From: an uncultured Bacilli bacterium
GTDB lineage: Bacteria > Bacillota_I > Bacilli_A > RF39 > UBA660
Length of the DNA stretch: 64,000 bases
Direction: 5' to 3'
Assembly (NCBI GenBank): GCA_910580135.1
Contig: CAJTXC010000001.1
Span: 2,425-66,424 of the forward strand
The position numbers were made by a program, and so were the translations under genes. Positions within the stretch are counted from its first letter, which is position 1, and every line of letters starts with the position of its first letter. The notes beneath the pieces were generated by a model. It made no database searches. It was given only the letters and a program-made list of their open reading frames with translations, and was not told where the DNA came from. Shown here piece after piece: positions 1,087-59,900 of the stretch.

Positions 1087-1123
1087 TCTACGGGGGAGCT
1101 AATATACTTAGTTCTCTCGTAGA
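1087..1123 (+). terminator. intergenic stem-loop built from the iterated motif (possible terminator)
   Basis: tctacgggggag (1087-1098) pairs with ttctctcgtaga (1112-1123): 12 pairs including 3 G-T/U wobbles, 13-nt loop. A T-rich tail (tattactttt) follows, and it sits 11 nt after the stop of ORF 500-1075. Confidence 0.4.
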
Positions 1124-1145
1124 TATTACTTTTAATAATATAAGT

Positions 1146-2253: not shown

Positions 2254-2255
2254 TT

Positions 2256-3257: not shown

Positions 3258-3880
3258 AAACTCAGTTGTACGCAAAATGTAAAGTTTGTGATTTTGAAGC
3301 ACTTCTTAAGAAAAAAGGTTATGCTTATTTTAATAAAGGTAACTATAATCTTAATATTATAGGAGTTCGTAGTAATCAAGGTAATAAAGTTACAAATAAA
3401 TATGATGACTGTCTTGTAGTAATATATAATACAGATTCTGGTTGGAAACGTCAAATATATACTATTACTACAGAACCTGGACTTAAACTTATGAAAGCTC
3501 CAAGTAATAGTAAAGGTACTGCTATTCTTGCACCTGGTCAATATCGTGGAGCTTATAAAATAGATAAACATCGTGGTAAATATGATGCTCTTTGTCAAAG
3601 GAATAAAGTTGTAAAAGTTTATCGTGATAATAATCGTAATGAAATTTATGATTATAAACCTGAGAATATTGATACAGGAATGTTTGGTATTAATATTCAT
3701 CGTTCTAATGAGTTTTGGACTCGTACTACAATAGATGGTTATTCAGCAGGTTGTCAAGTATTTAACGACCCTAAAGAATTTAATTCTTTTATGACTCTTG
3801 TTAAAAAGTCCGCTGCTATTTTTGGTAATTGTTTTACTTATACACTTATTAATGAAGAAGATATAGATGAAATGGTCTGA
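3254..3880 (+). CDS. putative cell-wall enzyme with YkuD-like (L,D-transpeptidase fold) H...SxGC motif; endolysin candidate
   Basis: GINIHRSN...DGYSAGCQVF resembles the catalytic His ... S-x-G-C signature of the YkuD fold. ATGA start/stop overlap with the upstream gene, and two small membrane proteins follow. Confidence 0.4.
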   Translation: MKTQLYAKCKVCDFEALLKKKGYAYFNKGNYNLNIIGVRSNQGNKVTNKYDDCLVVIYNTDSGWKRQIYTITTEPGLKLMKAPSNSKGTAILAPGQYRGAYKIDKHRGKYDALCQRNKVVKVYRDNNRNEIYDYKPENIDTGMFGINIHRSNEFWTRTTIDGYSAGCQVFNDPKEFNSFMTLVKKSAAIFGNCFTYTLINEEDIDEMV

Positions 3881-4157
3881 TATAAAGAAAGGTTTAGCAG
3901 ACTGGTTTGCTAAACTATTTTTGGTAATTGGAATACTTGCTACTATTGGTGGTTTTGTTTATACTTGTTGTAGAGATAAAGAGAATACCACACCCCCCGT
4001 AGAAAGCAACAAAATAGACTCAATTATTAAAGAGAATGATAAACTTATTATTGAAGTTGAAAATTTAGATAGTATTAAAGATGCAAAAGTTATTGAAGTT
4101 AAGAGTTTGGATAATGATAGCACTCTTAGATTGTTCTATCAACTTATCGGCAAATAA
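3867..4157 (+). CDS. small membrane protein, N-terminal TM helix (holin or i-spanin-like candidate)
   Basis: The LFLVIGILATIGGFVYTCC hydrophobic segment is followed by a charged, coiled-coil-like tail. Position is directly after the putative lysin. Confidence 0.45.
   Translation: MKWSDIKKGLADWFAKLFLVIGILATIGGFVYTCCRDKENTTPPVESNKIDSIIKENDKLIIEVENLDSIKDAKVIEVKSLDNDSTLRLFYQLIGK
3992..4003 (-). repeat. iterated motif, variant (ACCCCCCGTAGA; 2 changes)
   Basis: Inside ORF 3867-4157, read as TTPPVES. Confidence 0.6.
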
Positions 4158-4461
4158 TACTGATGTAGATAGTCTGAACCTTTCTACGGGGGAGGTAGTT
4201 CAACCTAAAGATTCTGTTCTTATTTCTTATGATGATTTAAGACTTGCTAATTCTAAACTTATAGAACTTGATTATGAAAAACAAATTAATAATAACTTAC
4301 GTTGTGTTATCGCTAATGATAGTATTATTATCCGAGATTATCAAGTTCTCAATGATAGAATTAATAAAGATTGTAAGAAAGTAACTCGTCAAAGAAATAT
4401 AGCATTTGGTGGAGCAGCATTTCTATTTCTTACTACTATTATTACATTACTTATAAAATGA
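4081..4461 (+). CDS. small membrane protein, C-terminal TM helix; overlaps previous gene out of frame
   Basis: AFGGAAFLFLTTIITLLIK lies at the C-terminus. The possible lipobox-like ALLDC near the N-terminus is weak. The start is uncertain (ATG 4081 or 4114). Confidence 0.4.
   Translation: MQKLLKLRVWIMIALLDCSINLSANNTDVDSLNLSTGEVVQPKDSVLISYDDLRLANSKLIELDYEKQINNNLRCVIANDSIIIRDYQVLNDRINKDCKKVTRQRNIAFGGAAFLFLTTIITLLIK
4183..4194 (+). repeat. iterated motif, exact TCTACGGGGGAG
   Basis: Context gaaccTTTCTACGGGGGAGGTAGTTcaacc, inside ORF 4081-4461, read as LSTGEVV. Confidence 0.9.
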
Positions 4462-9952: not shown

Positions 9953-11236
9953 ATGGCTGTACAAGACATTGATTTTGAAGGTGCAGATAACACAGGTGGT
10001 GGTTCAAATCCTGATACCAATACTGTTGTGCCTGATAACAAAGATGATGTTACTCATCTTAATGGTGGTGATGTAGATGATATTACAAATGGTTCTACAG
10101 ATGACAACAAAGATAAACCAGATGATAAAGGTGATAGCAACAATGATAATCACAACGATGACACTTCTACGGGGGAGCTAAATGCTGGCGACCAACTTGA
10201 AGTAGATGGTGTTGTTTATACTGTTGCTGAAAATGGTGACCTTGTTGATGACAAAGGTAATGTTTTTAAAGAAGCTAAAGATGTAGCTGAATGGCTCAAA
10301 TCTGTAGATGTTACAAACGAAAATGAAGATTCAACTCTAAATCTTGCTTCTATTCAGGAAGCTGTAGGTATTACAGTTACTGATGAAAATGGTAAAACTA
10401 TAGAGTTTACAGATGATGCTGATGGCGTTAAGTCATATATTGACTCTGTTATTGCTCTTAGGTCTACTGAACTTCAAGAAGCTGCTGTTAATCGTCTTTA
10501 TCAAGATAATCCTCTTCTTAAACAATTCCAAGATTATGTTCAGCTTAAAGGTACAGCTAAGGGATTTGGTGATATTCCTGACCGTAGTGGTATTAAACTT
10601 GACAAGAATAACGAAGCTCAACTTGTAGCTGTAATTAAGATGGCTGCTCAAGAATTTGGTAATAAGAGTCTTAACGATAATTATATCAAATATCTTCGTG
10701 ATAGTGGTGGTCTTTACGATGAAGCTACTAACCAGCTTGCTGCTCTTGTAGATAAAGATAAAGCATATCGTCAACAAATTGAAACGCAGGCTGCTGAACA
10801 GCGAAAACAAGAAGCTGATGCAAGAGCTTCTTATTGGGAGAAAGTTAATAATATGATTAATAGTCGTGTTATTAACGGTTATAAAATTCCTGATAGTTTT
10901 ACAAGAGAAGTTGACGGTAAGAAAGTTGTTATTACACCTAATGATTTCTTTACATATCTTTCTGAGGCTACTGTTGAACAAAAAGATGGTTCTAAGATTA
11001 CAGCTTATCAGAATGATTTAGCTAAACTCACTGATGATGAGTTTATGGCTCGTGAAATGCTTGATGCTTGGCTTATGTTTACAGGTGGAACATATAAAGA
11101 TTTAATTGATATGGCTGTTAAAGAAAACGAAGTTCGTCGTCTTATTGTCAAATCTAAACAATCACGTTCTGCTAAATCTGTTAAAGTTGTTAAAAAGCAA
11201 GACGGTAAGACAAGTATTGATGATATAGTTCTTTAA
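9953..11236 (+). CDS. acidic protein, putative scaffolding protein (positional guess)
   Basis: 427 aa with a D/N/G-rich low-complexity N-terminus. It lies between the portal and capsid genes and contains the motif copy at 10166. Confidence 0.35.
   Translation: MAVQDIDFEGADNTGGGSNPDTNTVVPDNKDDVTHLNGGDVDDITNGSTDDNKDKPDDKGDSNNDNHNDDTSTGELNAGDQLEVDGVVYTVAENGDLVDDKGNVFKEAKDVAEWLKSVDVTNENEDSTLNLASIQEAVGITVTDENGKTIEFTDDADGVKSYIDSVIALRSTELQEAAVNRLYQDNPLLKQFQDYVQLKGTAKGFGDIPDRSGIKLDKNNEAQLVAVIKMAAQEFGNKSLNDNYIKYLRDSGGLYDEATNQLAALVDKDKAYRQQIETQAAEQRKQEADARASYWEKVNNMINSRVINGYKIPDSFTREVDGKKVVITPNDFFTYLSEATVEQKDGSKITAYQNDLAKLTDDEFMAREMLDAWLMFTGGTYKDLIDMAVKENEVRRLIVKSKQSRSAKSVKVVKKQDGKTSIDDIVL
10166..10177 (+). 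repeat. iterated motif, exact TCTACGGGGGAG
   Basis: Context acacTTCTACGGGGGAGCTAAAT, inside ORF 9953-11236, read as TSTGELN. Confidence 0.9.
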
Positions 11237-16752: not shown

Positions 16753-16986
16753 ATGTATGATGATGTAATTAGAAAGAATATACTTGATGACCTTGAGGGC
16801 AAAGTTATGAGTATTGTTAATACTTCTATAGCTTTAGCCTCTCAAGGCTATCTTGTTAATAAAAGTAAGTATATTAGACTTGATTGGTCTAGCTTGCTTC
16901 TTCATGCGTTTGAAAATATAGATGTTCTTAAACCTGAACAACAACATTGTGTAGAACTTCTTTATAATAGACTTTCAACAATATGA
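16753..16986 (+). CDS. hypothetical protein (77 aa)
   Basis: ATG ORF with ATGA overlap to the next gene. Confidence 0.5.
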   Translation: MYDDVIRKNILDDLEGKVMSIVNTSIALASQGYLVNKSKYIRLDWSSLLLHAFENIDVLKPEQQHCVELLYNRLSTI

Positions 16987-17738
16987 GTGAATTAAAACCT
17001 ATTGAACCAGAATATATTTATGTTACAATTCCAGCTGAATATATTTGTGTTTATCATCGTATTCTTGCTATGATGGCTGATTATGGTGAAGAAATGCTTA
17101 AAGATTGTAAAGCTAGTTGTACAGATAAAAATTCTGGTGTGATTGAATGTTTTAATATGTTTAATTCTGCTGTTGCAGCAAGAAAACTTGGAAAAGACAA
17201 ACTTGCTTCAGTTATTATTACATATGTTAAAGCTAAAATCAATCAAATATATAAAGGTAAAGATAATAGTACAAGTTTTGTTTTTCCTGTAGATGAAACA
17301 GGACAACTAAAAGCTTTTGTTAGTTGCGGAGAACGTCCTCGTTTTGAGATTAATGCAGACGATGGAGAACTCTATGAACATAAACTTGGAAACGGTTTTG
17401 ATGAGCATTTTCGTCTTGGTCCTGAAGATGAGTCTAAAGATGATATAAATACTAGCTCCCCCGTAGAAAGTTTGGGGCTTGATATTATTATGACTCCTCG
17501 TTATGAAGAAATAGATGGTGAAATGCGTCCTTGTGCTGATATTACAGTATTGTATAATGGTTATCCTATAAATGTTAATAATACTTCTTATCAGTATTAC
17601 TTTGATGATAAGCCTGTGATTAGGTTTAACGATGTTGTGAACCTTTCTACGGGGGTGCATAATTTCAAAGTTGTTGTTACTTATAATGGTCAAACTAAAA
17701 TAGAAAGTGTAGATAAATATTATGCAGCTACAAATTGA
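16983..17738 (+). CDS. hypothetical protein (251 aa)
   Basis: ATG ORF containing an inverted pair of the iterated motif (17456 and 17646). Confidence 0.55.
   Translation: MSELKPIEPEYIYVTIPAEYICVYHRILAMMADYGEEMLKDCKASCTDKNSGVIECFNMFNSAVAARKLGKDKLASVIITYVKAKINQIYKGKDNSTSFVFPVDETGQLKAFVSCGERPRFEINADDGELYEHKLGNGFDEHFRLGPEDESKDDINTSSPVESLGLDIIMTPRYEEIDGEMRPCADITVLYNGYPINVNNTSYQYYFDDKPVIRFNDVVNLSTGVHNFKVVVTYNGQTKIESVDKYYAATN
17456..17467 (-). repeat. iterated motif, exact (CTCCCCCGTAGA on plus strand)
   Basis: Inside ORF 16983-17738, read as SSPVESL. Confidence 0.9.
17646..17657 (+). repeat. iterated motif, variant TCTACGGGGGTG (1 change)
   Basis: Context gaaccTTTCTACGGGGGTGcat, same ORF, read as LSTGVHN. 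Confidence 0.75.
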
Positions 17739-20961: not shown

Positions 20962-23900
20962 ATGATTTATAACAAAGGTGAAGAACATATGGATAATCCT
21001 ATTCCTGTAACTGAGGAAAATTTAGGATTTAACACTCCTTGGGAAGGTCATACTTCTAAAGAGATTGAAAGTTATGTATGTTCTGTTTTTGAAAAACTAT
21101 CTGAAAGTTCATCTGCACGATTTACTCTCACTCTTGTAGATGGAAATCTTATTAACTTTGTTGATGGAGTAGATAACATTGTATTCCGATATAAAGTTAA
21201 GTATGCTTCTTCTGAAGAAGTCTTTAATACGTATCGTTTGAGCATTACAGTTAATGGTCAGATTATTCAAGATGGTTATCAGTCTTCTTCTGAAGATGAA
21301 ATTCTAACATCTCCTAATCTTGCTCAGTATCTTAATTCTACAAATGAAAGTACTGTAATAGTTCGTATTCGTGCTTACGATTTGGATGAAAACAATAATG
21401 TAATTGCACAGTCGAGTAATACTATTACATTTAACCGAGTAGTTGGTACACTTGCCCTTCAAGGTATGGTTTTTGGTGCAGTCAATCCTAATGGTATTAG
21501 ATATACTGCTGATTTTGTTCCAACTACTGCTGCTCCTGTAGCTTATCTTAGGTATAAAGTAACTCAACCTGATGGTAGTCTTGTTACATTCACAGACTCT
21601 TCTACGGGGGAGGTAAATAACTATAATGAAATTCCTGTTAGTGCTTCTGGTACTGTAACTGTTCCACTACCAGATAATCTGAGTGATGGTGTTCATACTA
21701 TAACTGCTAAATTAATTGTAGGTAAAACTCAATCTGTTGAAGGTATTTCTACTAACACAATAGTTTACAATTTCCTTACTGTTTCAGATACTGTTGCAGA
21801 TGGAACTCCATTTATTATTGTGGATAGTGTAGATAGTCCTGTTCAGAATGATTATACTCCTGTTAGATATCTTGTTTATATTAAAGGAAAAGAAGCAAGT
21901 TATACTACTCCTCTTCTTTTACAAGATTATTTTAATAATAAGTATAATACTCAAGCTATTAAGAATGTAAAAAATGGAACTATTTATACTTGGAATTATT
22001 TTGTTCCTAATCTTACATCTCTTGGAATGATTACTTGCCAACTCCGTTTTGCTCTTCCTAAAATGCAAAATGGACAAATTGTTTATAATAATAATGGTGA
22101 ACCTCAAATAGACGGTACAGCAGGCACATATAAATCTATTTCTTTTACACCTAAACCAAGTACTATTCCTTGGAATCAAATGGAAGATACATTCCATCTT
22201 TCTGTTAGAAATAAAAGTAATGACGATTATGACGTTGGTACTCTTAAAGATAATGGATATGAAATGGAATTTGAAGATTTCCAATGGAATACTTCTGGTA
22301 GTGGTTATACTCAATTAACTATTGATGGTGTTACATCTAATGTTCTTAAATTTGTAGGTAACAGTAAAGCTACTATTAAAAATTTCTTCCCGTTCTACGA
22401 TACTACTCCTTATAATGCTGCAAATTCTGTAGGTGGTGGTATTCTTGCTACAGGTCGTACTCTTAAGATTAAGTTTGCTGTATCTAATGTTTCTAATGCT
22501 GAAGCTAAAGTTATAGATTGTTATGATGATAGTAATCCTGGTATGGGTTTCTATATTACTGGTAACGGTATGTATCTTAAGTTTGTAGAAGAACTTGTAA
22601 GTAAACCTGAAGAGTATCAAACTGCATCTGGTCATAACGATAGACGTTTTAGTGAAAATAAATGTATTGAACTTTGTATTACTATTCAACCATATTGGGG
22701 TGCTGGTAATATAGAGTCTGCTCATGAAGTTCGATACTATATTAATGGTGAGCTTGCTGGTTTCCGTAAGATTGCTGCTACAACGTCTTTGAGTCAAGTT
22801 GTACCTAAAACTATATCATTTGGAGGTAAAGGTGCTATCTTGTATCTTTATGAAGTTAAATATAAGAATAAATGTATTACTCCTTTTGAAGTTCTTCAAG
22901 AATATGGTATGAGTCAAGATAGTTCTAAGGCTCTTAACAACTTCTATGAAAAGAATAGTTTTTATACTCTTCGCACTAATTCAAATGGGGAAACTTATCC
23001 TGAAATTACTCTTAAGGATGCAATTAACTATGGTAAATATTTAGCAAGCAAAGGAGTAACTGATTTTGCTGTTTTTGTTACTACTAATGATTGTAACGCT
23101 GAACGATATACTGCTAATGGTGGTAAAGCTAACACAAAAGAGTATGCTCAAGATGCTGAATCTTTATATATTTATAGATTCCGTCAAAATGAAAAAGGAG
23201 AAGGTGAAATTGACCCTGATATGACTTTCTATATCGAAGGTCATGATGATAATGAAGAACAAACTTGGTATCTAGGTGAAGAAGATGGTGAAACTAAAGG
23301 CGCTCTTCGTTTTCGCCGTCAAGGTACATCAACAGCTGATGGTACTAAAGGTAATATTCGTTGGGATGTTCGTGCAACTTGTCTTCTTCATAAGTTTAAT
23401 CCTGCTACTCAGAGATTCTTTGATGAATATACTAAGATTAAGAAAAAATGGGAAGGATTTTATATTCCTGATAAAAATGCTATTCCTTGTTTCCTTGTAA
23501 CAGCTAAAAAGAATGTTAATGAGTCTACTCATACTCGTAACGTTCCTACAGCTAAATGGTTTGAAGCTTGTTCTCGTGCTCTTGCTAAAGCAGATGAGAA
23601 ATATGAGGATATTCTTACTCCTCCTCAAAGGGCTGAATTAAAGAGTATTCAAACTGCTTATCCTAGTCTTAGTCGTTCACAGCAGATTGACAGAATTAAG
23701 ACTCGTCAAGTTATTGACGGTATTACTTCTTTAGGATTTAGAATTCAATATTCTAAAGACGCTGCTGGTAAATATCTTCCTGTTACTGACCCAACTCTTT
23801 CTACTCTTGAATGTGAATTTATAGGTCAATATGATTTGACTACTGATAAAAAGAATATGAAAATATTTGGTTTTGGTGGTCATATTGAACATAATTCAGA

Positions 23901-33407: not shown

Positions 33408-33830
33408 ATGAAAAGAGATAGTCTTGATATATACGACGATATGCCTGAAGATATGAAACATTATCTTCGTTATAATGGTAGGCATTTTAATAGAAAACTA
33501 TGTGATTTTGCAATAAGTCAAATGTCATCTACCAACCCTTCTACGGGGGAGGTGGTTCATGTAGTTAAACTTGATAAAGAAGCTGTAGATGCTCTTCTTA
33601 AAACATATCGAATTGAAATTAAGAATAATCAACTTTATGATTATGTATATGTTGCAAATATGTGTAAAGCTGATTTTCTTGGTAGAAGTGTACCTGATGA
33701 ACAACATCTCTGTTTATATATTAAAGATGTGATAGATGATGTAGACGGTTATGATGGTCTTGTGTTTAATCGTTGGTATGCTGATATGTGTAGAAGTGGT
33801 GTTGCAATAGATTGGGAAGCGATGTTATAA
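33408..33830 (+). CDS. hypothetical protein (140 aa)
   Basis: ATG ORF containing the motif copy at 33540. Confidence 0.55.
   Translation: MKRDSLDIYDDMPEDMKHYLRYNGRHFNRKLCDFAISQMSSTNPSTGEVVHVVKLDKEAVDALLKTYRIEIKNNQLYDYVYVANMCKADFLGRSVPDEQHLCLYIKDVIDDVDGYDGLVFNRWYADMCRSGVAIDWEAML
33540..33551 (+). repeat. iterated motif, exact TCTACGGGGGAG
   Basis: The full form AACCCTTCTACGGGGGAGGTGGTT spans 33534-33557, inside ORF 33408-33830, read as NPSTGEVV. Confidence 0.9.
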
Positions 33831-33992: not shown

Positions 33993-34034
33993 TCAATAAT
34001 AATAAGAGATATATTAAAAGTAAAGCTAATCATA

Positions 34035-34499: not shown

Positions 34500-34511
34500 C
34501 TCCCCCGTAGA
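34500..34511 (-). repeat. iterated motif, exact (CTCCCCCGTAGA), intergenic
   Basis: Context gcgCTCCCCCGTAGAAAGGTTGtg. A partner half-site CGGGGGAG lies at 34587-34594. Confidence 0.9.
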
Positions 34512-34594
34512 AAGGTTGTGAAACTTAATTGTTATTATTAAGGTGTTAGTATAATAATTAGTAAGTGTACTATTAATCAACCTAATCGGGGGAG
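34500..34594. other. intergenic imperfect inverted repeat / candidate structured RNA containing the iterated motif
   Basis: CTCCCCCG (34500-34507) pairs with CGGGGGAG (34587-34594). AGGTTG (34513-34518) pairs with CAACCT (34578-34583). An inner stem is cttaat/attaag. Confidence 0.45.
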
Positions 34595-41973: not shown

Positions 41974-43847
41974 GTAGAATAAGACTTAAAGATGATGGTA
42001 AGCCTCGTCATAAAGCTTTATTTGGTGCAGATGGTGCTGTGATGGCTGCTGCTACATTAGCTGCTGCTGGTATTACTGCTGGTGCTACAGCTGCTGCTGC
42101 TAAATCTCAAGCTAAAGCTATGGTAGAAAATGCTAAAACTCAAGCACAATCTATAAAAGACCAAACTACTAATAGTAATAATCTTCAAAAAGAACAACTT
42201 GCTTTTACTCGTTCTCAAAATCAAGAGAACAGACAACAACAGCAAGATATTCAAACTACTCTTCAGCTTATGGCTGGACAAGAGAATATGAATGATAGAA
42301 TGGAACGTAATAAAATGCAAGTTAGACTTGGTGGTAAACCTAAACGTAGAACTATCACTGCACCTTTCTACGGGGGAGGTCAATTCCAAGTAACTGATGG
42401 TGGTGGAGTTATTCCACTTTCTGTTACACCTGACGGTTATGGTCTTTATGAGCTTTATGGTAATGACCACGAACATTATCATAAAACTTCTGGTGGAAAG
42501 AACAAAACCGGTGTTGGAATTAAATTCAATGACGGTTCTGTTGTAGAAGGAGAAGGCAACCAAAATACTAATCAAGGTGAACTTCTTTATGTTACTCCTA
42601 ATGATGCTATGTTTATTTCAAAACATAGCATTGGTGGTTTTAATCCTACTCAAGCAGTTATGAGTGGTGTTCATCCTGAACAAGCTTTTGCTATTCAAGA
42701 AACACTTAAAGATGAAAAAGGACTTAATGATGATGGTAGTAAATCTAAACGCCGTAGTCTTAAACGTATGCTTGGTGGTCCAACTCAATATCCTGAACAA
42801 GTTAATATGACACAAAATCCTAATAACGGTACAGGTTCTGTTGCAGGTGGTGTCATATATGGTATAAATAATTCAACCACCTCCCCCGTAGAAAAGCTAA
42901 AATATAACAATGCTATTGCTAAACATGGTGGTCGTATTCATCTTAAATGTGGTGGTAGACGTAAAGCTGCTTGGGGTGATTATGCTGGAGCAACTTATAA
43001 TGCAGCAGGTAATCTTCTTGGTGCTGGTATTTCTACTTGGGGAAATATGTGGGCTTCTAATAGACTTGGTAAAGCATATAATGAAGCTGGTAATATTCTT
43101 GCAGATGCTTATTCTCAAATGCATGGTATTGATATGAGTGAACTCAAAATGGAAGATTATGCTGCTCCTCATACTTTAGCTGTTGTTAGAGATGCAAATA
43201 ATATAAGTTATGACCCACAAAGAGAACGTATTCATCGTAATTCTGCTTCTGAACGTAGAGAAATAAATCGTGGAACTTTAAGTTCTGCTGCTCGTCAGCA
43301 AAGACTTGCTGCTACTAATGATAGAATGTTCCAACGTATTAGTGAAGTAGATGCTACAGAAAATAATGCAAGAGAATCTATACGACAAGGTAATGCTGAA
43401 CGTATAACTCAAACTGCTCAAGCTAATGCAGATAGAGATGTTCAAGCTCGTAGAGATTTTGGTAATCAAAGACTTTCACTTCTTCAATATAATAATAATA
43501 TTGAAAATGCTAAGATAGCGGGTATGGCTCAAGCTCGTGCTGATGCGCTTACTCAGTCTTCTATGGCTCATGCACAAGGTATGCAAGCAAGTATGTCTGC
43601 TATTGGTTCAGGACTTGCTAATTCAGGTCAAGGCTTTGCTTCTGCTTTTGATGCTGCAAGAAAAGAAAAAACAGATTTTACTAATACTTATATAGGATTA
43701 GGAGATATAGATAAAGTAAATGCTGCTATTCTTAGATATAAGCAAACAGGAGACAAATCTTTTATAAATAGTTTATTAGCTGGTAATACAATAAGTGACG
43801 AAGCTAGAGCTAAATTACAAGATACACTAACTAAAAAGAAAAGTTAA
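41970..43847 (+). CDS. putative internal/ejection protein (625 aa), Ala-rich hydrophobic N-terminus, Q/N-rich
   Basis: The N-terminal segment is ALFGADGAVMAAATLAAAGITAGATAAAA. It contains an inverted motif pair (42367 and 42881). Confidence 0.4.
   Translation: MSRIRLKDDGKPRHKALFGADGAVMAAATLAAAGITAGATAAAAKSQAKAMVENAKTQAQSIKDQTTNSNNLQKEQLAFTRSQNQENRQQQQDIQTTLQLMAGQENMNDRMERNKMQVRLGGKPKRRTITAPFYGGGQFQVTDGGGVIPLSVTPDGYGLYELYGNDHEHYHKTSGGKNKTGVGIKFNDGSVVEGEGNQNTNQGELLYVTPNDAMFISKHSIGGFNPTQAVMSGVHPEQAFAIQETLKDEKGLNDDGSKSKRRSLKRMLGGPTQYPEQVNMTQNPNNGTGSVAGGVIYGINNSTTSPVEKLKYNNAIAKHGGRIHLKCGGRRKAAWGDYAGATYNAAGNLLGAGISTWGNMWASNRLGKAYNEAGNILADAYSQMHGIDMSELKMEDYAAPHTLAVVRDANNISYDPQRERIHRNSASERREINRGTLSSAARQQRLAATNDRMFQRISEVDATENNARESIRQGNAERITQTAQANADRDVQARRDFGNQRLSLLQYNNNIENAKIAGMAQARADALTQSSMAHAQGMQASMSAIGSGLANSGQGFASAFDAARKEKTDFTNTYIGLGDIDKVNAAILRYKQTGDKSFINSLLAGNTISDEARAKLQDTLTKKKS
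42367..42378 (+). repeat. iterated motif, exact TCTACGGGGGAG
   Basis: Context caccTTTCTACGGGGGAGGTcaa, inside ORF 41970-43847, read in a different frame as PFYGGGQ. Confidence 0.9.
42881..42892 (-). repeat. iterated motif, exact (CTCCCCCGTAGA)
   Basis: Context CAACCACCTCCCCCGTAGAAAA, same ORF, read as STTSPVEK. Confidence 0.9.
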
Positions 43848-46928: not shown

Positions 46929-49900
46929 ATGGATATTCAAGCTATTTTTAATGCAGGAGGAACTGTTATTAAAAATCCTAATTATAAAAAAAGAAAAAAG
47001 AATACTCAACCAGAGTATATAACAGTTTCTGATTTAGATTCAGGAATTGCTCCTGATGGAAGTATTGTAGCAGATATAGCGTACAAAGCTGCTGCAAGTG
47101 GAAATCAAGATATATTAGGAAGAAATGGAGAATTAGATAAATATATAGAACATGGTCTTACTCCAAATGGTTGGGAAGATTTAGATGTTCAACTTGCAGA
47201 ACAACAAGGTAATTGGACTAAATTAGGTAACGCTCTTGCTCAAACTCTTGTATCTGAATTAGCTCTTGGAACAGTTAAAGGTTTCAGTGATTTAGGAGAT
47301 TTAATAGGACAAGCTGTTGGACTAAGTGACGGTGATTATTCAAATCCTGTTAGTCAATATCTTGAAGAAAAACAAGAAGAATTTCGTAATTTTGCTCCTA
47401 TATATACAAGACCTGGTGTTAACATAAGTAATGGAGGATTACTTGATGCAGGTTGGTGGACTAGTAATATACCAAGTATTATTAGTTCATTAACTCTTCT
47501 TATTCCAAGTACTGGTATTACAAAAGGTTTATCAGCTATAGGAAAAGCAGCTAATGTAGGTGCTCGTACAAGAAACGCTATACGTGCTGTTAGTGGTGTT
47601 AATCGTAAAATGGTACAAGCTGAACGTCTTAGAGAAGCAGGCAGAACTACTGAAGAAATTGCTGAACTTACTAGACTTAATGGAGTTCAAAAGTTTCTAA
47701 CAAGTGCTAGTACAGCTAAACAAACTTCTCTTTTCTTAGAAAATGCTACAACTGCTGCTCTTAGTAGAGCAATGGAGAATTATCAAGAAGCTCGTCAAAC
47801 ATATAATGATATGTACGCTGAAGCTTCAGAATATCTTAAAGATGATAATAATTATCAGACATTTCTTCAGCAAAATAGTGAATCTCTTAGGCAAGCAGGT
47901 GTTGATGTAAATGATAGAGATGCTGTAGCTAAATATATTTCTTCTTCTGCTGCCGATAGAACCTTTCAAACTGACTGGTTTAATGTTAGTTGGGATGTTA
48001 TTCAAATGTATGGTCTTAGAAATGCTTGGAAAGGACTTAGAAATGCTAAAGATACTCCTTCTGCTGTAAGACGTGCTGAATTAGATGCTCGTAAATATTT
48101 TGGTAAAAAGCCTGAAGAAATAGCTAAACTTAAAGCTCAACGTTCTTTTGGTGAAAAAGCACGAGAATGGGCTAGTGATAGACTTTATGGTTCTAAACTT
48201 ATTGTTGGTTTTGAATTAAGTGAAGGTGCTGAAGAAGCACTTAACTATATTGCTACAGAAGAAGGTATGCGATTTGGTCGTGTTCTTCTTGGAACAGAAC
48301 AAGGAGAAAATAAAGGTGTATGGAGTAACATACTTAATGGATTTGATGGTCGTTTGAAATCTTATCTTCAAGCTCCAGAACTTTATGATGCTGCTTTTTG
48401 GGGTGTTCTTGGTGGTGTAGTTTTTCAAGCTGGTGGTAGTTTTATTAATCGTGTAGGTCAAAAGTTTAATAAATCTGAAGCTGACAAAAATGCTGCAAGT
48501 AAACTCCCGTGGTATCAACTTGACCAACTTCCTGAAAATCAAAGACGTATAGCAGAAATAGAAGCTCGTTCTACTGATTTTGCTAATTACAAATCTCAAC
48601 TTGATAAAATTAATCAAGGAATTGATGTTTATAATTCTACAGAGAATAATGAAGTAAGATTTAATTCTGAAGAAGAAGCTAATGTAGCAAGAGAGAAACT
48701 TAAAGATGAATTTATTGCTAGTATGACTCTTCGTGCAATGAATTCTGGTAATTATGATATGCTTAAAGCTTTTCTTCAAGATGAAAATGTTCGTAAAAAT
48801 TTAATTGAAAGTGGTGTTTTTGGACATGAAAGTGAAAATGGTAAAACATCTGCTGAAATAGAACAAGAAGCTAAAGAATACGTTGATTCTGCTGTTAGAC
48901 GTATGGATGAAATTGCTGATATGTATGAGCAAGAACTTACAGCAGTCGATTACGCTTCTTCTCGTATTGGCAAAGATATGTTAGCCGAATATATGCAAAT
49001 TATAGCTAACAATAATGTTAATACACAACTTGCTCTTAGACAAAATCAACTTTCACTTGCAGGAACTAATGCTAGAATTGCTCAATTAGAAGAACAATTT
49101 AGAGATAATCTTGACCCTAGTATTAATCATGCAAATAATATTAAAGTAGGTCTTATTTCTTCTGAATTAGGTAAACTTTATGCTGAGAAAAAGAAACTTA
49201 CTGAACAGCCTAATAGTCTTAGCAAAACTATAGCACTCGAAAACATTAATAAAAAGATTGAAACTCTTGAAAATGAACTTTCAGATAGTGAACTTGTTTT
49301 TGCTACTTCTTTAGCTCTTCGTTATGTAAAGAAAGAAGATGGTTCTTATGCACAAGAAGATACTGAAGATTATTTTAGATACAGAGATAATCAAATAATT
49401 AATCATACAGAAGATAATGTAGGTTTAACTTTTGACGATACTTTAATAAGTGTTGGACTTTCTCGTCGTGCTAGAACTGTTCTTAGTGATGTAGCAATGC
49501 AAGAATATAAAGTTCTTGAACAAGATGCTGGTAGTAGTTTTGCTACTCTTCGTCAAATTAGTCCAGAACTTAACGATTTGTATGCTGTTCGTGCTGCTAC
49601 AGAATTATCTTCTAAAATGCTTAATTCTGAACTTGTTCGCACTGTAGATGAAGTAAGAGATTATTCTGCTATGCTTCATAATACAATGAGTGAAGCACGT
49701 ATTACTGCAATTGAACAATCCAATAAAACTATACTTGATTTATATAAGAAATATGGTAGAGATATTGAGTTCTATGTAACTGATGATTATAGCAGTAAAA
49801 ATGAAGTACTTAGAAAACTTTCTGAAAGTGAACGTAAAAATCTTGATGATGCTCTTAAAGTTTTAGCACTTACTAAATCTTATAATCGTTCTCTTGGTTT

Positions 49901-52900
49901 ACAACTTGAACTTATGTTTAGAAATCATGATGCAATAGTTGCTAGTCAAGATAGTGCTTTTATAGATGAAGAAAGTGAGGAAAACTCCACAAATTTAGAA
50001 GGCGATACAGACACTATTAACCCAGACCTTGACAATTACACAGGAACAACCGAACAAGACGACACAGAGCAAGTAATCGGGCAAAATGACGATATTACGC
50101 AGCCGAATGACCCCCAAAATATCTCAAACCGAACTCCTGCTTATTATGCTAAATTTTGGTTTCCAAAAGGTGTTCTTTCAAGTAGTAGACATAGTAGCAC
50201 AGATAACGGTGGAGCAGCAGTTTACGATAATGGAGATGGGACATTTACTTTAGATGTTCGTGATGATAAAAAAGCTCTTAACGATTCTCGTTTCTTTGCT
50301 AATGCTGATGAAGTAGATTTAACTCGTCCTTATGAAATAGTAGAAAAACCTATTCTTAAAAAGAATAAAAAAGGTAAACTTGAAGTTTATAAACAAGGTA
50401 GACTTGTTAATACTGATACATTAGAATATCAAGCTGCTCAACAAGCAGAAACTCAAGAAGAAGTTCAAGATGAAGTTCAGACTGAGGAAACTCAAGATGA
50501 AACAGTTGAACAACCTATTGAACATACTACTGAAGAAGAAGTTGAAGAAACTACTCAACCTGAGCAAGTAGAAGCTGACAACCCTTCTACGGGGGAGGTA
50601 GTTGCTGAAACTACTTCAGTTAATACAGAAAGTTCTGCTCCTGTTTCTGTTTATGATGAAGTTGTTCCAGATGAAGTTACTACAGAAGATGAAATTCGTA
50701 TGGCTAGTCTTGGAAGATTTCAAAAAGAATTTAAAGCTAATAATGATGTAGATTTAGATTCTATTGCTAGTGAAATCATAAACGAAGAAGTTAGAAAAGG
50801 TAGAGATAGACAAATGGTAGAAGCAGCTGTTAATAAATCTCTTTCTATTATTAAACGAGTAATAGAGCGTAAAAGAGGAAAAGCTGCTGATTCTGTTATG
50901 CAAAGTTCTGTTGATGAAGTTATTGTTCAATCAAGTATTGTAGAGCTTACAGCTAGAAATCCTTTTATTAAAGATTATACTGATGCTGTTAAGTCTATGA
51001 TAAATGAATTTTGTAAGGAAGTAGGTATAAATGAATATAATGGCAAAAAGTATATCAATCTTGAAGATTTACTTAGATATGTAAATACTATAACAAATGA
51101 TAGTCAAACTTCTAATATGATGTTTGACGCACTTAAAGTTTATCTTACTACAGACGAAGCTAAAAAAGAGTTTATAACAACTGATGAAACTCAGAATAGT
51201 GATACTCTTAAAAAGAATATAGCTAAGTCTGCTGCTCAACGTTATCAAGAAAGACTTTCTGATACTACTACACAACGAGTAGATATTTGGAGTCTTCGTA
51301 GAACTATGTCTTCTAATAAAGAACTTCAAGAATTTGAAGAAGCACTTGAGGCTATACAAAAAGGAGATAAACTTACTTATGTAAAAGAAGATAAAAGAAT
51401 TGTTCTTAAAGATTCTAAAGGTAGAATTGTCGGTACTTTAGCTATTCCAAGTATCAATCCTAAAACTGGTGCTTATGAAATAGCTAATGATGGTTGGAGA
51501 TATGATATTATTTCTCAAACTGGTGGTAATATAAATAGTAATCTTAAAACCCTATTTTCTCGTTGGCTTAATGAAGTGAATGATGCAAGTAAAGAACTTA
51601 ATGCTATTATTTACGAATTAGCATTTGAAAATGTAAGTCCTGAAAGAAAGAAAGAACTTCTTGTTAAATTTGCTAATAATTCTGAAATTAAATCTGCCAG
51701 AAATAATGGTTTTATAGATGCTGCTGCAACTAATGAAAAACTTATTAATGGTCTTGTTAAACTTTGGAGATACCAAAATTATACAGATGGAGATGTTACT
51801 ACTTTACGTAATAAACGTATTGATAGAACATTGAATACTTGGTTTAGCAAACTTCGTAATAGTTATGATGGAGTTAGTTATCTATTAAATGAAGAAAATG
51901 GAGAAATAGAAGTAACTAATATTAGTGATGGCGAGATAATTAGAGCTTCAGAAACTAATGGACAAGAAGCTGCTCTTCCTGTTAATAAGGCAATAGCTGG
52001 TGGTGTAAATCCTTCTATTCATAAATTAGCTATAGCCTCTAATAACGCTAATCATCTTACTGTTTCAGGTATGCCTGATATTCATTTTTCTGGTGTAGGT
52101 AAAATGAATACTTTTGTTCTTTTACCTAATAGAAACGGAAGTTATGAATATGTTCAAGCATATCCTGCTGATATTACTGATGATTATATAGGAAAAGATG
52201 CCAAAGAAATAATTAAAGCAATTCAAGATAGAGTAGAACAACTAATTGAAACTCATGTTAAACAACCTACTCAAGAAAGTTTCGAAGCTATTAAATCTTT
52301 TGTTAAATCTGTTCTTAGTAATCATAATGGTAATAGTAGTCTATTTTGGAATCTTACTCTTTTTGAACAAGGTAATACTTTTGGTATTTCTTTGAATAAA
52401 GATACTAAGATTGTTATAAATGCTACAACAGGGCAAGTAGATATTTCTAAATCAGAATATAAACCTAATAAAAAAGGATTTAGACAAATAAGGGTTGATT
52501 TAAATAGTAAACAAGCTAAAGATGCAATATCTGAACTATTAAATAATCTTAGATTTAATCTCAATCCTACTTATATAGCTTCAGATAATGCTACAAATAC
52601 TATTTTAAATGGTATAGTTAAACGTAGAAATGGTAAATTTGAAATAACTATTGGAGATAGGACTTGGTCATACGATAGTTTCAATGATTTTATACTTTCT
52701 AATAATCTTGTTAGACTTAATACCAAACCAAATGAAAGAGGAACAAGTAATTTTACTCCTCGTGGTAGTCGTAGTCAAAGTGGTAATCAAGTATTAGAAA
52801 TTAGAATTAATAGTACAACCACCTCCCCCGTAGAAAACCTCATAGAAACTCAATCTACTGAACCTGTTATTCCAGATACTAAAAACATTTCTATTCCTGA

Positions 52901-53894: not shown

Positions 53895-53960
53895 TTTATA
53901 TTAGTCGGCTAACAAAGTGGCTCAAATTAGATAAAAATAAATTAAATAAATTATAATATT

Positions 53961-56900
53961 ATGAGTTGTAATCTTTTTATAGATAGCACAGAAGTTAATA
54001 ATGCTATTGTAGCAGCAAGTAAAGGAAATAGTATTCTTGCTACAAGATATACTCTTGAATTTAAGAGTGAAGCGTTTGCTAAAGAACTTAAAGATAAATT
54101 AGGATTAAGTATTGATGAAATTCCTAAAAATAAACTTAATGAAGTAGTCAAACTTCTGCAAGAATATCATAATAGACTCTATCCTGATATTAATTATAGT
54201 ACCAAGCTTAATACGAGTGATTCTCCAATCACTCGTTTCGGGTATGATAGTGTTGCTACTCGTGAATTTGGTAAGAAACTTGCAGCTAATTTTATGTTAA
54301 GTGCTTATCATCAACTTGTTCATGATAAAGGTAAAACAATACAACAAGCTCTTAAAGAAATTAAAGAGAAAACAAAGAAAGATATATCTCCAAGAGATTA
54401 TTTTGCTAATACTGTAGTAGCTAAAGTTAAAAAACTTATTATTGAAAGAATTGTAAGTAGAAAATTAACTACTAAAGAAGAAGTTTTGCAATTAATGAAA
54501 ACAAATAATACTGCAAAACTTGAAGAACTATTTGCAAAAGATAATCGTATTGAAGATGCCAATCTTCTTGCTATGTATAAAGAAATACTTGGCAATAGAC
54601 GAGCTTTCTTTGAAGAAGTATTTCGTAATAACGCTCTTGGAGAACTTAGACTTAAGAAACAGCCTATAGCAGAAGATACTTCTTATGAAGCAATAGATGA
54701 ACAAGTAGAAGAAGAACTAGATTCTGAAGAAGGAAATGATTCTCCTACTGATGATAAAAACAATTCTATTAAAGAATTGAATGAAAAACTTGGTGACTAT
54801 AATAACTTTATGACTCATGTTGGAATGAGTATCAGAGGTTATTTTTCAAGTCTTCCTAGAATTATAAATGGTGAAAAATCTAACGGTAAATATGTTCAGG
54901 ATACCAATAATCCTTTTGGCATAGCAGATACAATGTCTGCTGCTCAATGTATTGCTGTTCTTTATTCTTATGGTAACTTCACTAATACAAAAACTATGAT
55001 AGATAGTATTCGTGAAATTGCTGATAATGTTCCGGGAATGGCAGCGTTTCATCAAGTTGCAGATTATCTTGACACTAATATTAGTTTTGCATTTGAAGTA
55101 TATAGAACTTTTGGTAAAGCTATTGTTAGCAAAATAGAAACTACAGATGCTAGTGGAGAATTTGGTAGTAGAACAAGTAATAGAACTGCTGATAAACTTA
55201 CTACACTTAAATTTGAATTTTTTAATAGTGCTAAGTCTACAAGTATTCGTTCTGAAGTAGAACATAGTAGTGATATATTTACTTCTATAAGTAAAAGACT
55301 TAAAGATTTACGTCAATTTAAAAAAGATATTGACTCAGATAGTTCTGTAAGTCCTGAAGATATAGAGGATTTCAATGAAGAAGTAAAGAAAGTTGCTACA
55401 GATTTATATAATCTTCTTAAACGATATTATCCTACTCTTTCAGATAAAGCTATAATAAATTATGTTAATTCTGGAAATCAAGTAGATAATCTTGCTAACT
55501 TAAGTAATATAGCTCAGCTTACAATAAAAGGAGCAGAGAAGAGTAAATTTACTTATGACAGCCGTCAAGCTGACCTTAATGCTCTTTATAGTAAAAGATA
55601 CCAACTTACACAAGCTCTTGAAAATGGCGAAAAGATAAGAAATGGTGCTTTTGAAGAAATTGAAAATCAACTTAATCAGCTTTATTCTATTGATTATGTT
55701 AGCAAAGAAACTCAAGAAGCTGCTTATCAATTAGCTGATGCCCTTGTTAAATTTAGTCTAATTAAGACTGAACTTAATTCTCGTAACGTACATGGTAATC
55801 AATCATCTGATGTTATTAACAACAGTATGATTACTAATATTATAAATACTCTTAAAGACCAAACAGCATTAGAGAATTTTGGTAAATATAAAGGACAATC
55901 CAAACAATATGATTTCAGTAATATTATGATTGAGCATCGTGATGAAAATGGAAATCTTATTAATTATGGATTGTTTACTCAGAATCCAGATAGTAAAGAA
56001 CTTACTCCTACTCCTTATGCTTACAGACTTCTTCAAAATACTTTATTTAGTGGTGCTGGTAGTGTAGTAGATGGTAAAAATGTTCTTTATTCTGAAATGA
56101 GTAGAGGTGACTATACTACTACAGCTTTCATTAATTTCTTTAGAACTGAAGATGATTTTAGTCAACAAACTGAAGCTGATAAAATAGCTTTTGCAGAATA
56201 CTTTATGCGTATTCCATCTGATGCTCCTAAGAATTTTATTATTAAAGCTCCTAAATATTCTGTTAATGGATTGTTTACAAAAGACGGTGTTAATACAAAT
56301 CATCCTATTTTCCAACAGTTTAGACAAGTATTTATACAAGAGCTTCAAGATATGGCTACAGCTATAAATGTTCTATTTGAACATGAAAGTGGTAAAGTTC
56401 GTCTTGATACAGATGAAAAATCACCTACTTATGGTATGCCTATATTTAAGCCTGGATTTGCTAATGATGCAGAAACTGCTCGTAAACTTTATAATAACTA
56501 TCATACTAAGAAAGGTAAAATTCTTAAAAAACTTTCTACAGGTCAATATAGTCTTTTAGGAGATGTATTTACTTCTGATAGGTTTAAAGTTACTATTCTT
56601 AATGAAAATGGTAAACTTGAAGCTGTTAATTTTGCTGATGAGATATTAAAACATTTCAATCTTCTTTACGGGGGAGCTAATAATACTTATCTCCATACAA
56701 CTACCACAAGCAATGGCGTGACTGTTCAACTTACCGATGAACAAAGTGCTATTATAAATGAACAACTTTCTAAGTTTATTATAGCTTACTCAAGTAGAGC
56801 TGTAAATGAGCTTAATGTTTATAGGAATTTTATTCCTGAAGGACTTCTTACAAAACGTAATGCGGCTGAATTTGCTCTTAATCATAGACTTATGTATATT

Positions 56901-59900
56901 AACTTCAATGATTTATTTGAGGGAGATACTAAGTTTTATAAAGATACACAAACTTTTCTTAAACGTGCTAAAGAAGCACAAGGTTCTGGTGTTCCTTATG
57001 GTATTGTAAATTATCAAATGGATTTATCCGAAGAACCTACTCTTGTTGAAAGTCCTCTTAATAATATAACATTTAATCACATATCTGTTGATGGAGTTAC
57101 TTCTCAAGTTAAAATAAATCAATATAGTAAATTTAGAGGAGTAACTATTAAAAATACTATTAGAACTGGTGATACAATTGGTACATTTGTAACTGATAAT
57201 AATGGTAATCCAGTTAAAGACGAAAATGGTAATTATAAGTTTGAAAAGCCTGGAGTTTTAGCTAAGACTCTTATAGATGCTCTTGTTGCATCTGGCATGA
57301 GTAAACCAAATGCTAAAATTCATGCTGCTAATATGATGGTGGGTTATACTAACACTACTGTCAATGATGCACAATCTTATATTACTTTTGAAGAATGGGT
57401 TCGTCGTATAACTGCTCGTGGTCAACTTCCTCAATATAAAGAACTTATAGATGCTGTACTTGATGAAACTAAGCCCTTAGATGCTAAAACTATTGGTCAG
57501 TTTATTCAAGTACAAAAGAACTTTTATTATGACCAACATTATAATGCTGAACTTGGAGTTATAGCTCCTCGTCAGATTAAAAATGCTGAATTTGTTATCG
57601 TTCCTCGTCTTGTTCGTGGTACACAACTTGAACAAGTTTATAACTTAATGCGAGAATTTAATATCGACCAGCTTAATACAGAAGAAACTTCTAAAGCAGG
57701 TAAATGTAATGTTCTTATATTATGGGATAATGAAGGAAATTTGACTGACGCTAATATAGCAGATTTTAGAGCTAATGCTGTTCATGCTACAGAATATTAT
57801 AATTATAATTATCTTTATACTCAACAAGAAACTCCTCAACATCTTGCAGCTGAGAACAAAGCTGGTATTCAGATAATGAAGAAAATTATAGATAACATTG
57901 ATTCTAATAGTGAACTTTATCCTCTTAAACAAAAGTTCTTTAATTTATATTCTCAAAATATTGTAGATAGTTATGAGAATTTAATGCAAGAACTTCATAT
58001 TAAACAAGATGAAAATGGAGAAATAAGTGCTTTTGACCAAGCTATTCTTTATGATATGCTTAAAGAAGAAGTTGGTCGTCTTGGTCTTGATAGTAATATG
58101 ATGGATTATGTTACTCTTGACAGGGATGGTGTTCCTATGATGCCAACTTATATGAGTAATGTTTCTACTAAACTTGAAAGTATTGCTCAAAGTTTGTTTA
58201 ATAATCGTATTACTCGTCAGAAACTTCCTGGTTGGCATGCTGCTCAGATTACAAATGTTGGTTGGACTGCTCTTAACGATACAGTTGATAAACGTAGTTA
58301 TAGTAAAAAACTTCAATATCATCCTGATGGTAAGCCTTATGTTGAAATAATGCTTCCTAAGAGCAATTTCCAAAATCTTGAATATAATAAACCAGATGGT
58401 ACTACTAAAACAGATGAAGAACTATTAGCAGAACTTGCTGAATCTGGACTTGATACAATGATTGGTTATCGTATTCCAACTGAAGGTAAACAATCTGTTT
58501 GTATTATGAAAGTTGTTGGGTTTACAGATGATGCTCTTGGTTCCACTATTGTAGTTCCTGATGATTGGGTTTCTCAAACTGGTTCTGACTTTGATATTGA
58601 CTCTGTTTATGGTATTCATTTTAGTGGAGAAGTAAATAAAGAAACTGGTAAATTAGAAAAAGTTCAATATAATAAAGAAGATAAACGTTCAGATAGAAAA
58701 ACAAAAGGACGTAATAATGAACTTCTTCAAACTATGATTGATATTCTTTCACATCCAAGTTCTTTAGAGGAAAATCTTTCTCGTTCTAACTTTGAAGATA
58801 TTATCAACGATAGAGATGAAGTTATAAATTCTGAACTTGCTAAACTTAGAAAAGCTCGTTCTCCTTATGATTTCTTCGACCAAGCTGCATATCAAGAAGA
58901 TGTAATGAGTGGTGCTAAACTTAAAGCATTTAGTGTTACTCGTGATACTTTTTGTTCTATATGTAATACAGTTCGTCCGAACATTAGTGTAGGTAAAACT
59001 GTTTCTGTTATTTATAAGAAAGATGACGGTTATACTGAAGCTGGTCTTAAGAAACATTTTGGAAATATAAAAAGACTTAAAGATGGTAGTGGTTGGATTG
59101 TAACACATGATACTTTAGGTTGGACTTTAGATAATAAAAATGTTGTTGGAAAGATTCTAACAGCTTATTCATCTCAAACTACAGCTCATATTCTCGATGC
59201 TGTAAAAGAAGGTTCTATCCCTAATGTTAATGATTTTACTTTCCAAGTATATAAGTTATTTCCTGATATAGGTTCTGATTATAAAACTGCTATTGCATTT
59301 ATGATGCAACCTGGTGTTACTAGAATAGTAAATATTTATAATGCTAATAAATCTATATATGGAGAAGAATCTGGTAATGCTATAAATGAAGCTATTAAAC
59401 AAATAGCTACAGAAATACTTAAGCTTGATGGAATTTCTATTCCTAAAAATGCTAGTGTAAAAACACTACTTAATAAACTTAAAAATATTTCTTCAGAAAT
59501 AGCAGAATTATTTGATGTAGTTGAAGCTGATAAATTTAAAATAGAAGATACAGCAGCAGCTAATATGCTTAATATTTCTGCTTCTAAACTTAGAGATAGA
59601 ATTAATCAAACTGGTGAGTTTAGCACTACCTCCCCCGTAGGAAGTAGAAATCAATTACTTTATGATTTAGGTGTTATTCTACAATATAATAAACTTAATA
59701 TTTTAGCTAATGATATTTCTGCTTATGCAAGAGTTTGTAATCCTGATAAGTTTGGTGCTAAGCAAACTATTTATGCTACTGCTAAAGTATTTGATGATAT
59801 TCAAACTCTTGTAACCGCATCTAACCCTTCTCTTACTGTAAATGGTAGAAGTTTTATTGCTGCTATTTATCCTGAAGTATTTAGAGGTATAGATGGTTAT

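Follow-up and report, generated by a model that had tools for sequence, protein, structure and literature searches.

What constraint could hold one GC-rich word at many scattered places in an AT-rich phage genome? The question was raised by a 64,000-nucleotide stretch of contig CAJTXC010000001.1, referred to throughout as the window, in which the 12-mer TCTACGGGGGAG recurs on both strands. The window was identified as a crAss-like phage (Intestiviridae, Obtuvirinae), and its nearest record was MH552500 (Wotdevirus murinus; Intestiviridae, Obtuvirinae), with a nucleotide identity of ~70%. All genes called in the window are on the + strand, and its G+C content varies from 0.24 to 0.37. The 12-mer was found to be the core of an element of ~18-25 bp, present in ~20-31 copies per genome in all six Intestiviridae genomes examined. 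We see about an even chance that this is a family-specific cis-acting element of the Intestiviridae, which would serve as a distributed polar signal for a phage-encoded DNA-handling machine.

The copies had been listed in an earlier interpretation of the letters alone (the sequence-only reading), and all of its coordinates were right. Exact copies start at 1087, 4183, 10166, 21601, 33540, 42367, and 50586 on the + strand and at 17456, 34500, 42881, and 52823 on the - strand, and near-exact copies start at 3992 (-), 17646 (+), 56665 (+), and 59630 (-). The 11 exact copies (seven + and four -) compare with none in 100 dinucleotide shuffles, and the 15 copies with at most two mismatches (9 + and 6 -) compare with a shuffle expectation of 0.56 and a maximum of three in any shuffle; the shuffled control that the reading had proposed thus places the motif far beyond chance. 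Its remark that runs of five G or C are scarce elsewhere also held, since the motif or a half-site accounts for all ten runs of GGGGG and for six of the eight runs of CCCCC. The half-site it named is real (34583-34594, TAATCGGGGGAG), and the contexts of 42881 and 52823 do have 22 nt in common. A degenerate partner at 1112-1123 (-) had been overlooked. In a position-weight scan of three Obtuvirinae genomes, copies with at most one mismatch scored 25-43 and a few degenerate copies scored 14-24, compared to a top score per shuffled genome that averaged 8-9 and reached a maximum of 20.5. The motif sites are a discrete scoring class.

The copies occupy nine + strand open reading frames (ORFs; 13 copies) and two intergenic regions (1087 and 34500), as originally counted, where the nine include a giant ORF from 53946 to beyond 64000 that is absent from the program-made ORF list. 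Sense copies in the window read S-T-G-E (six), S-T-G-V (one), FYGG (one), and LYGG (one), and antisense copies read SPVE or the close variants PPVE and SPVG. Three frames are used per orientation in p-crAssphage and crAss001. A codon-driven control word, AAACTTGAAG (codons K-L-E), had all 13 of its window copies on the sense (+) strand. The constraint acts on the nucleic acid and not on protein, because copies occur on both strands, in several frames, and between genes. The motif is not a duplicated protein domain, as had been argued from the frames before. As a separate observation, runs of the CAGCAGCAGC type occur six times in the window.

A peptide motif such as PSTGE, recurring in many proteins as a protease or glycosylation site, could appeal to the six of nine window sense copies that encode S-T-G-E, to the seventh that encodes S-T-G-V, and to the SPVE-like antisense reading. 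However, two sense copies are in another frame, two copies are intergenic, and the antisense peptide is unrelated. Synonymous positions are also invariant, with codons expected to be rare in so AT-rich a genome, and at one matching position p-crAssphage uses another frame. This reading is refuted by frame usage and intergenic copies, and its probability is negligible.

The distribution of the element followed the phage family. A core of TACGGGG is shared family-wide, with a pyrimidine tract on its 5' side and purines on its 3' side, and the variants around it are genus-specific. The 12-mer itself was found in 22 copies in MH552500 and 20 copies in cr271_1 (Hacihdavirus; cr271 below). In p-crAssphage (Carjivirus communis), the form is tCCATCCTCYACGGGGRGT, with 31 copies (13 + and 18 -), and the variants of cr3_1 (Diorhovirus) and cr8_1 (Fohxhuevirus) are TTCCTyTACGGGGGAr and ACATwCCTTTTACGGGGsGG, respectively. 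The TACGGGG core with its pyrimidine tract and purines is a hallmark of the Intestiviridae with genus dialects. In crAss001, an analogous word, CTTCTGGAG, occurs in 32 copies compared to ~2 expected. Nothing comparable was found in phi14:2, in the Suoliviridae genome cr55_1, or in the Bacteroides siphophage B40-8.

Two further observations were made on crAss001 (MH675552). The hexamer ACGGGG/CCCCGT is absent from its 100 kb, where a rough estimate predicts ~10 occurrences, and 14 consecutive CTTCTGGAG sites alternate in orientation between 26.5 and 59.1 kb. Its congener cr112_1 retains TTCTGGAG.

Host-type DNA was represented by 873 kb of Bacteroidales chromosomal sequence from 120 loci, which had been retrieved through an unrelated small RNA (sRNA) sequence. 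The 12-mer had no copy in this sample, ACGGGGGAG had one compared to 4.7 for permuted words, and TTCTGGAG had 18 compared to 22 for permuted words. Because no enrichment was found in Bacteroidales DNA, the motif is not a host Chi or uptake-type word, and mimicry of either was rejected. The view that it is no standard promoter, att, cos, or CRISPR repeat was likewise supported, and no Rfam family or tRNA was found at the sites. In a transcription study of phi14:2, no motif was common to the early promoters used by the virion RNA polymerase, and middle and late genes were reported to have host-type promoters. No published description of the motif or its strings was found in full-text literature of incomplete journal coverage, where string matches were PCR primers; the element is apparently undescribed.

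Conservation of copy positions, which the sequence-only reading had proposed as a check, was observed in MH552500 and cr271. Orientation and spacing are kept at orthologous sites, including the 191 and 190 nt of two close pairs, and at matching sites the motif is 92-93% identical compared to 73-74% in the aligned flanks. Against p-crAssphage, exact alignment was seen for three window sites, of which one is read in a different frame; another two are within ~12-20 residues of a counterpart, in variable linkers.

In the first part of the window, the exact copy at 1087..1098 (+) is intergenic, located 12 nt downstream of the stop codon that ends ORF 500-1075 and 48 nt upstream of ORF 1146, and its orthologues are at MH552500 44929 and cr271 3524. 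ORF 3867-4157 contains a copy with two mismatches at 3992..4003 (-, TCTACGGGGGGT), which is read PPVE. It lies 191 nt from the opposite-strand exact copy at 4183..4194 (+; ORF 4081-4461, read STGE), a spacing that is retained with its orthologue at MH552500 47830. The 4183 copy aligns with p-crAssphage 91287, where the frame differs (LSTGEV compared to HPPRGV). Within ORF 9953-11236, which precedes the major capsid gene, the exact copy at 10166..10177 (+) is read STGE and has orthologues at MH552500 53967 and cr271 14931; a sense copy in p-crAssphage gp75 is ~12 residues from this position in the alignment. ORF 16983-17738 includes two copies 190 nt apart, an exact one at 17456..17467 (-, read SPVE; MH552500 60897) and one with a single mismatch at 17646..17657 (+, TCTACGGGGGTG, read STGV), whose variant is identical at MH552500 61087. 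The orthologous stretch for the exact copy at 21601..21612 (+), read STGE in ORF 20962-25827 (1621 aa), was not found in the two relatives.

Farther along, ORF 33408-33830 (DUF7841) carries the exact copy at 33540..33551 (+, read STGE), with an orthologue at MH552500 69719 and a cr271 counterpart decayed by substitution (TCTACAGGAGTA). The exact copy at 34500..34511 (-) is intergenic, between ORF 33990-34352 and an HNH gene, and faces the degenerate half-site at 34583..34594 (+, three mismatches), which has the opposite orientation; its orthologue is at MH552500 70671, and the corresponding gap of cr271 contains sites at 31904 (-) and 31984 (+). Both copies in ORF 41970-43847 are exact: 42367..42378 (+) is in the other frame (FYGG) and has an orthologue at MH552500 77746, and 42881..42892 (-) is read SPVE, with its MH552500 orthologue at 78257 decayed by substitution (TTTACAGGCGAG).

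The remaining copies are in the RNA polymerase region. ORF 46929-53894 (2321 aa), which encodes an RNA-polymerase-associated protein, contains the exact copy at 50586..50597 (+, read STGE), with an orthologue at MH552500 86076 and a sense copy ~20 residues away in p-crAssphage gp45, in a variable linker. It also contains the exact copy at 52823..52834 (-, read SPVE), with orthologues at MH552500 88304 and cr271 50246, which aligns column for column with p-crAssphage 42682 (TSPVEN compared to PPVED). In the giant ORF, the copy at 56665..56676 (+, one mismatch, TTTACGGGGGAG, read LYGG) aligns exactly with p-crAssphage 39092 (LLYGG compared to ILYGG). The copy at 59630..59641 (-, one mismatch, CCTACGGGGGAG, read SPVG) falls within a 12-residue insertion relative to p-crAssphage and has orthologues at MH552500 5787 and cr271 59060. 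The giant ORF itself, a homologue of gp44, the RNA polymerase fusion protein of p-crAssphage, has more than 3351 codons and continues past the end of the window; with the ORF left out of the list, the region 53946-64000 looks gene-empty.

These positions bear on whether the motif is a selfish or drive-maintained repeat, that is, a miniature mobile or gene-converting element that was inserted in frame, is merely tolerated, and has no phage function, as modeled on doublets of repetitive extragenic palindromic sequences (REPs) known as REPINs, Rickettsia palindromic elements, or the GC clusters of yeast mitochondria. A GC-rich island in an AT-rich genome would suit such an origin, as would the position of 59630 within an insertion and the close inverted doublets, which resemble REPINs. 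Flanks that are uniform within a genome and different between genera would also fit concerted evolution. However, the positions match between genomes of ~70% identity and even across subfamilies, with the motif preserved amid diverging flanks. At MH552500 78257 and at the cr271 counterpart of 33540, the site was lost by point substitution and not by clean excision, and the even per-strand spacing described below is unexpected of a parasite. No transposase or RAYT-like gene is associated with the sites; the aligned flanks revealed neither target-site duplications nor terminal repeats, although no search aimed at these was made. The footprint of a tiny mobile element, one of the roles originally proposed, is therefore disfavored by the orthologous positions, and we regard the selfish repeat as improbable.

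The two close pairs in unrelated loci, 3992/4183 and 17456/17646, both have a - copy followed by a + copy, at 191 and 190 nt, an unexplained coincidence. Their interiors share no similarity, and an origin as a duplicated segment or a miniature inverted-repeat transposable element was rejected on this ground. Evidence for mosaic boundaries at sites is anecdotal, with one high-scoring segment pair beginning at 1085 and few close relatives available.

The orientation of the copies provided further insight. Neighboring sites had opposite orientations in 11 of 14 pairs in the window, 22 of 31 in p-crAssphage, and 25 of 31 in crAss001 (P = 4e-4 for crAss001 alone), hence in 58 of 76 pairs across three independent lineages compared to ~38.5 expected. 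With five genomes pooled, 85 pairs alternate compared to 57 +/- 5 expected, where the Obtuvirinae genomes are not independent. Alternation depends on distance: the ratio of opposite to same orientation in the three independent lineages was 15:0 for gaps under 1 kb, 10:2 for 1-2 kb, 18:5 for 2-4 kb, and 13:9 for 4-8 kb. Among the Intestiviridae, spacing within a strand has a coefficient of variation of 0.32-0.44 compared to 0.61-0.81 for all sites pooled, with the smallest same-strand gaps at 1.5-3 kb or more and the largest at 8-18 kb. The alternation persists across blocks of genes on either strand. Such an arrangement would result from two independent series, each of them strand-specific and evenly spaced.

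Alternating inverted orientation is also typical of multiple-inversion systems, and several pairs lie within one gene, as might be expected of crossover sites at which a site-specific recombinase would flip the segment separating two opposite copies (a shufflon or intragenic invertons). However, simulated flips of all four intragenic pairs brought in 2-31 stop codons, by which frame-preserving intragenic inversion was rejected. The sites are in essential genes genome-wide, and no recombinase was found in the annotation tables of MH552500, cr271, and p-crAssphage or among ten Pfam-scanned ORFs of the window. Inversion is thus very improbable.

The main rival to a signal read on DNA is an RNA-level element, in which opposite copies would pair on one transcript as local hairpins or long-range duplexes and act as terminators, 3'-end stabilizers, or sites for a double-strand RNase, with the pattern in the DNA being secondary. 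Such pairing predicts both the alternation and the 15:0 ratio of opposite neighbors below 1 kb. It is also consistent with the folds of the intergenic copies, which form strong hairpins with a second or partial copy (z-scores from -3.2 to -11), some of them 4-16 nt past stop codons. For example, the 1087 copy is the 5' arm of a 16-bp hairpin spanning 1087-1123, and its 3' arm is the degenerate partner at 1112..1123 (-, TCTACGAGAGAA), whose three mismatches become G.U pairs in the + strand RNA; the fold of 1075-1135 has an energy of -24.9 kcal/mol (z = -7.0). Both orthologues of 1087 are likewise in hairpins, and the arms at cr271 3524 also differ only by sense G.U pairs. Similarly, the copies at 56665 and 59630 differ by two changes that correspond to U.G pairs in the sense RNA.

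Other observations argue against pairing in RNA. G.U-type differences between neighboring copies show no excess on the sense strand, with 86 there and 126 on the antisense strand, and of ten single intragenic copies folded as RNA, nine were no better than shuffles, with 50586 as the exception (z = -3.2). The dialects differ without hairpin covariation. Partners 2-7 kb apart in translated ORFs would be unwound by ribosomes, the 9-mer of crAss001 is too short for kilobase loops, and in MH552500 and crAss001 the alternation crosses the convergent junction of gene blocks, where sites cannot share a transcript. The suggestion of an RNA-processing site formed by pairing of opposite copies has alternation and intergenic hairpins in its favor, and the missing sense G.U bias and the insignificant folds of single copies against it; we consider the RNA-level reading unlikely. 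A variant in which every copy forms a local hairpin (the UACG tetraloop idea) was not supported, since z was near 0 in nine of ten copies and the dialects did not covary.

Several intergenic copies nevertheless take the form of an intrinsic terminator, in which a GC hairpin is followed by a U-tract after a gene (1087-1123, MH552500 12767, and cr271 66207, for example), and three intergenic hairpins (those at both giant-gene ends and at MH552500 44929) precede a U-rich or A/U-rich tail. Those placed shortly after stop codons look terminator-like, and a role in termination is predicted from their sequence. At MH552500 12767 and cr271 66207, an antisense copy is found 4-5 nt past the stop of the giant polymerase gene. 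The 3' half of this copy forms a stem with a partial copy, AACCTTTCTAC, and a U-rich tail comes next; the arrangement is kept in both genera. In p-crAssphage (BK010471), close inverted pairs at 28062-28208 and 95745-95880 are located ~540 and ~270 nt upstream of two RepL genes, the former being a 147-nt hairpin of -72.8 kcal/mol (z = -11). RepL was found only in p-crAssphage among the genomes examined, and a link to RepL was dropped for this reason.

Taken with the alternation, we infer from genome statistics alone that a protein reads the element on DNA, and among the four roles originally proposed, a protein-binding or nicking site is favored. In this polar-signal reading, the ~20-31 copies of each genome are distributed over all modules and, within genes, threaded into tolerant frames and linkers. 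The element is asymmetric and would be read on one strand, with each strand carrying copies fairly evenly, every ~5-11 kb. Same-strand copies are never near one another, and orientation therefore alternates along the genome. Being essentially absent from host-type DNA, the element would mark DNA as the phage's own. Intergenic opposite copies, or a copy with a partial copy, may have been co-opted as terminator-like hairpins.

As for the machine, a tentative and by itself unlikely guess is that the copies are sites on each template strand at which priming or helicase-primase loading is preferred. The guess is suggested by the pyrimidine tract, followed by YTA (CTG in crAss001) and a G-rich stretch; the tract with YTA or CTG resembles DnaG-type initiation trinucleotides. 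Nicking, Chi-like attenuation of a nuclease, and packaging recognition, together with a small remainder, would share the rest of the even chance given to the polar signal. The Intestiviridae helicase is AAA_30/PIF1-like.

Several points weigh against the polar-signal reading. Intramolecular pairing in RNA or in single-stranded DNA also predicts alternation and close inverted pairs, and avoidance of deletion-prone direct repeats would add to the same pattern. The function is deduced from genome statistics and not from a molecular signal such as a bound protein, a nick, or a primer. The three Obtuvirinae genomes are not independent samples, the few sites per genome make the spacing statistics rough, and the host-type sample is a Bacteroidales mixture and not the actual host. 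For the priming guess in particular, the per-strand mean interval of 5-11 kb is long for Okazaki fragments. The primase of crAss001 is of the Toprim type, a class that needs only a trinucleotide. Additionally, the annotated primase of the Intestiviridae has no Pfam match, so that nothing ties it to the motif.

Programmed single-strand nicks, introduced into virion or replicating DNA by a phage nickase as in T5, phiKMV, and Pseudomonas phage tf, would be compatible with a site that is asymmetric, specific, conserved, present on both strands, and specific to a phage lineage. The phages are annotated as encoding a DNA ligase, and known nick consensus sequences are of a similar length to the motif. 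However, no nickase candidate is conserved together with the motif, and inverted copies 25-190 bp apart would yield staggered nicks that are nearly double-strand breaks. The HNH gene beside 34500 (34626-35168), which the sequence-only reading had put forward as a candidate, was identified as a homing-type endonuclease (HNH_3 and NUMOD1). It was rejected as the cognate enzyme because it is missing from relatives that carry the motif, where the similarity of related contigs ends at 34612 and resumes at 35180. We consider programmed nicking to have a low probability. The HNH gene is a mobile insert placed directly upstream of CrAss_Ring_2 (35171-35857), which encodes the tail ring protein. The other candidate, the helix-turn-helix protein at 30784-31083 (HTH_17), is conserved within the Obtuvirinae, was not detected in p-crAssphage, and has a weak match to a Kehishuvirus protein annotated as a small terminase.

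A side observation concerns the - strand at window positions 3-75, the sole Rfam match in the window, which is unrelated to the motif. It matches RF04319, the Bacteroidetes FopS paralogous sRNAs, at 60.5 bits, where the gathering score is 56, and is similar to GibS in its 5' part; the phage thus carries a host-type small RNA. The 27-nt FopS-like 5' sequence is exact in at least 120 Bacteroidales stretches, including Muribaculaceae, Bacteroides, Parabacteroides, Prevotella, Paludibacter, and others. A link between the motif and this sRNA was rejected, as the two have no complementarity.

In its broadest form, the proposal is that the Intestiviridae, including p-crAssphage, punctuate both strands regularly with a family-specific 'self' signal, that Kehishuvirus does likewise with a different word, and that these represent an undescribed class of phage cis-elements whose dialects co-evolve with a phage protein reading one strand in replication, recombination, or packaging. 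We hold this to be plausible, at somewhat less than an even chance. If true, a self-signal constrains the sequence of ~20-30 sites inside essential genes. The crAss-like phages are the most abundant human gut viruses, and their replication, packaging, and persistence are poorly understood. A conserved signal of ~20 bp, with ~30 copies per genome even in p-crAssphage, offers an experimental handle as a bait, for mapping, or for recoding. The element accounts for unusual GC-rich runs of codons and for small insertions that are seen in many crAss proteins, and it provides a simple sequence signature for recognizing Intestiviridae contigs and genera.

Among known systems, REPs, bacterial interspersed mosaic elements, and REPINs resemble the phage element as short GC-rich repeats that alternate in clusters and form inverted hairpin doublets. 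However, REPs are extragenic, self-palindromic, and RAYT-associated, whereas the phage copies are mostly intragenic single sites of conserved position. The nick sites of T5, phiKMV, and tf share a phage-specific consensus of ~10-20 bp at conserved positions; they are fewer and mostly on one strand, and the phage element is known here from sequence alone. Single-strand initiation (ssi) and primase sites, such as the G4 type and RSF1010 ssiA/ssiB, are similarly strand-specific, found on both strands, and sometimes in inverted pairs. In contrast to these signals, which are stable hairpins of 40-140 nt clustered at origins, the phage sites are short and genome-wide, and nine of ten single copies were as unstructured as shuffles in RNA folds, with no covariation among dialects.

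Chi, recognized by RecBCD or AddAB, is comparable in being asymmetric, G-rich, over-represented, and present about once every few kb. A moving enzyme reads Chi on a single strand, and Chi identifies DNA as self, as is proposed for the phage element. In contrast, Chi is 5-8 nt long and host-specified, whereas the phage element is 12-25 nt long, specific to a phage lineage, and not enriched in Bacteroidales DNA (the true host may differ). The phage element is also not linked to a RecBCD-like enzyme, and it alternates instead of following the direction of replication.

In genomic behavior, the element is also like the uptake signal sequences (USS) of Pasteurellaceae and the DNA uptake sequences (DUS) of Neisseriaceae. 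Uptake sequences have a short core within an extended motif, occur equally often in the two orientations, and form close complementary pairs that serve as terminators (PMC1852404). Similarly, the phage element has a core in a longer and weaker motif, similar numbers on both strands, copies within and between genes, and close complementary copies in hairpins after stop codons. Lineage dialects, a preference for tolerant frames, and even spacing are known for USS and DUS as well. However, the carrier here is the genome of a lytic phage and not a competent bacterium, with no uptake receptor involved; the copies number tens (about one per 3-4 kb) and not thousands; and the distance-dependent alternation exceeds what terminator pairs account for. 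The likeness is in genomic behavior only, and the element is not classed as a member of either group. Behavior known from bacterial uptake sequences and from Chi can arise in a virus.

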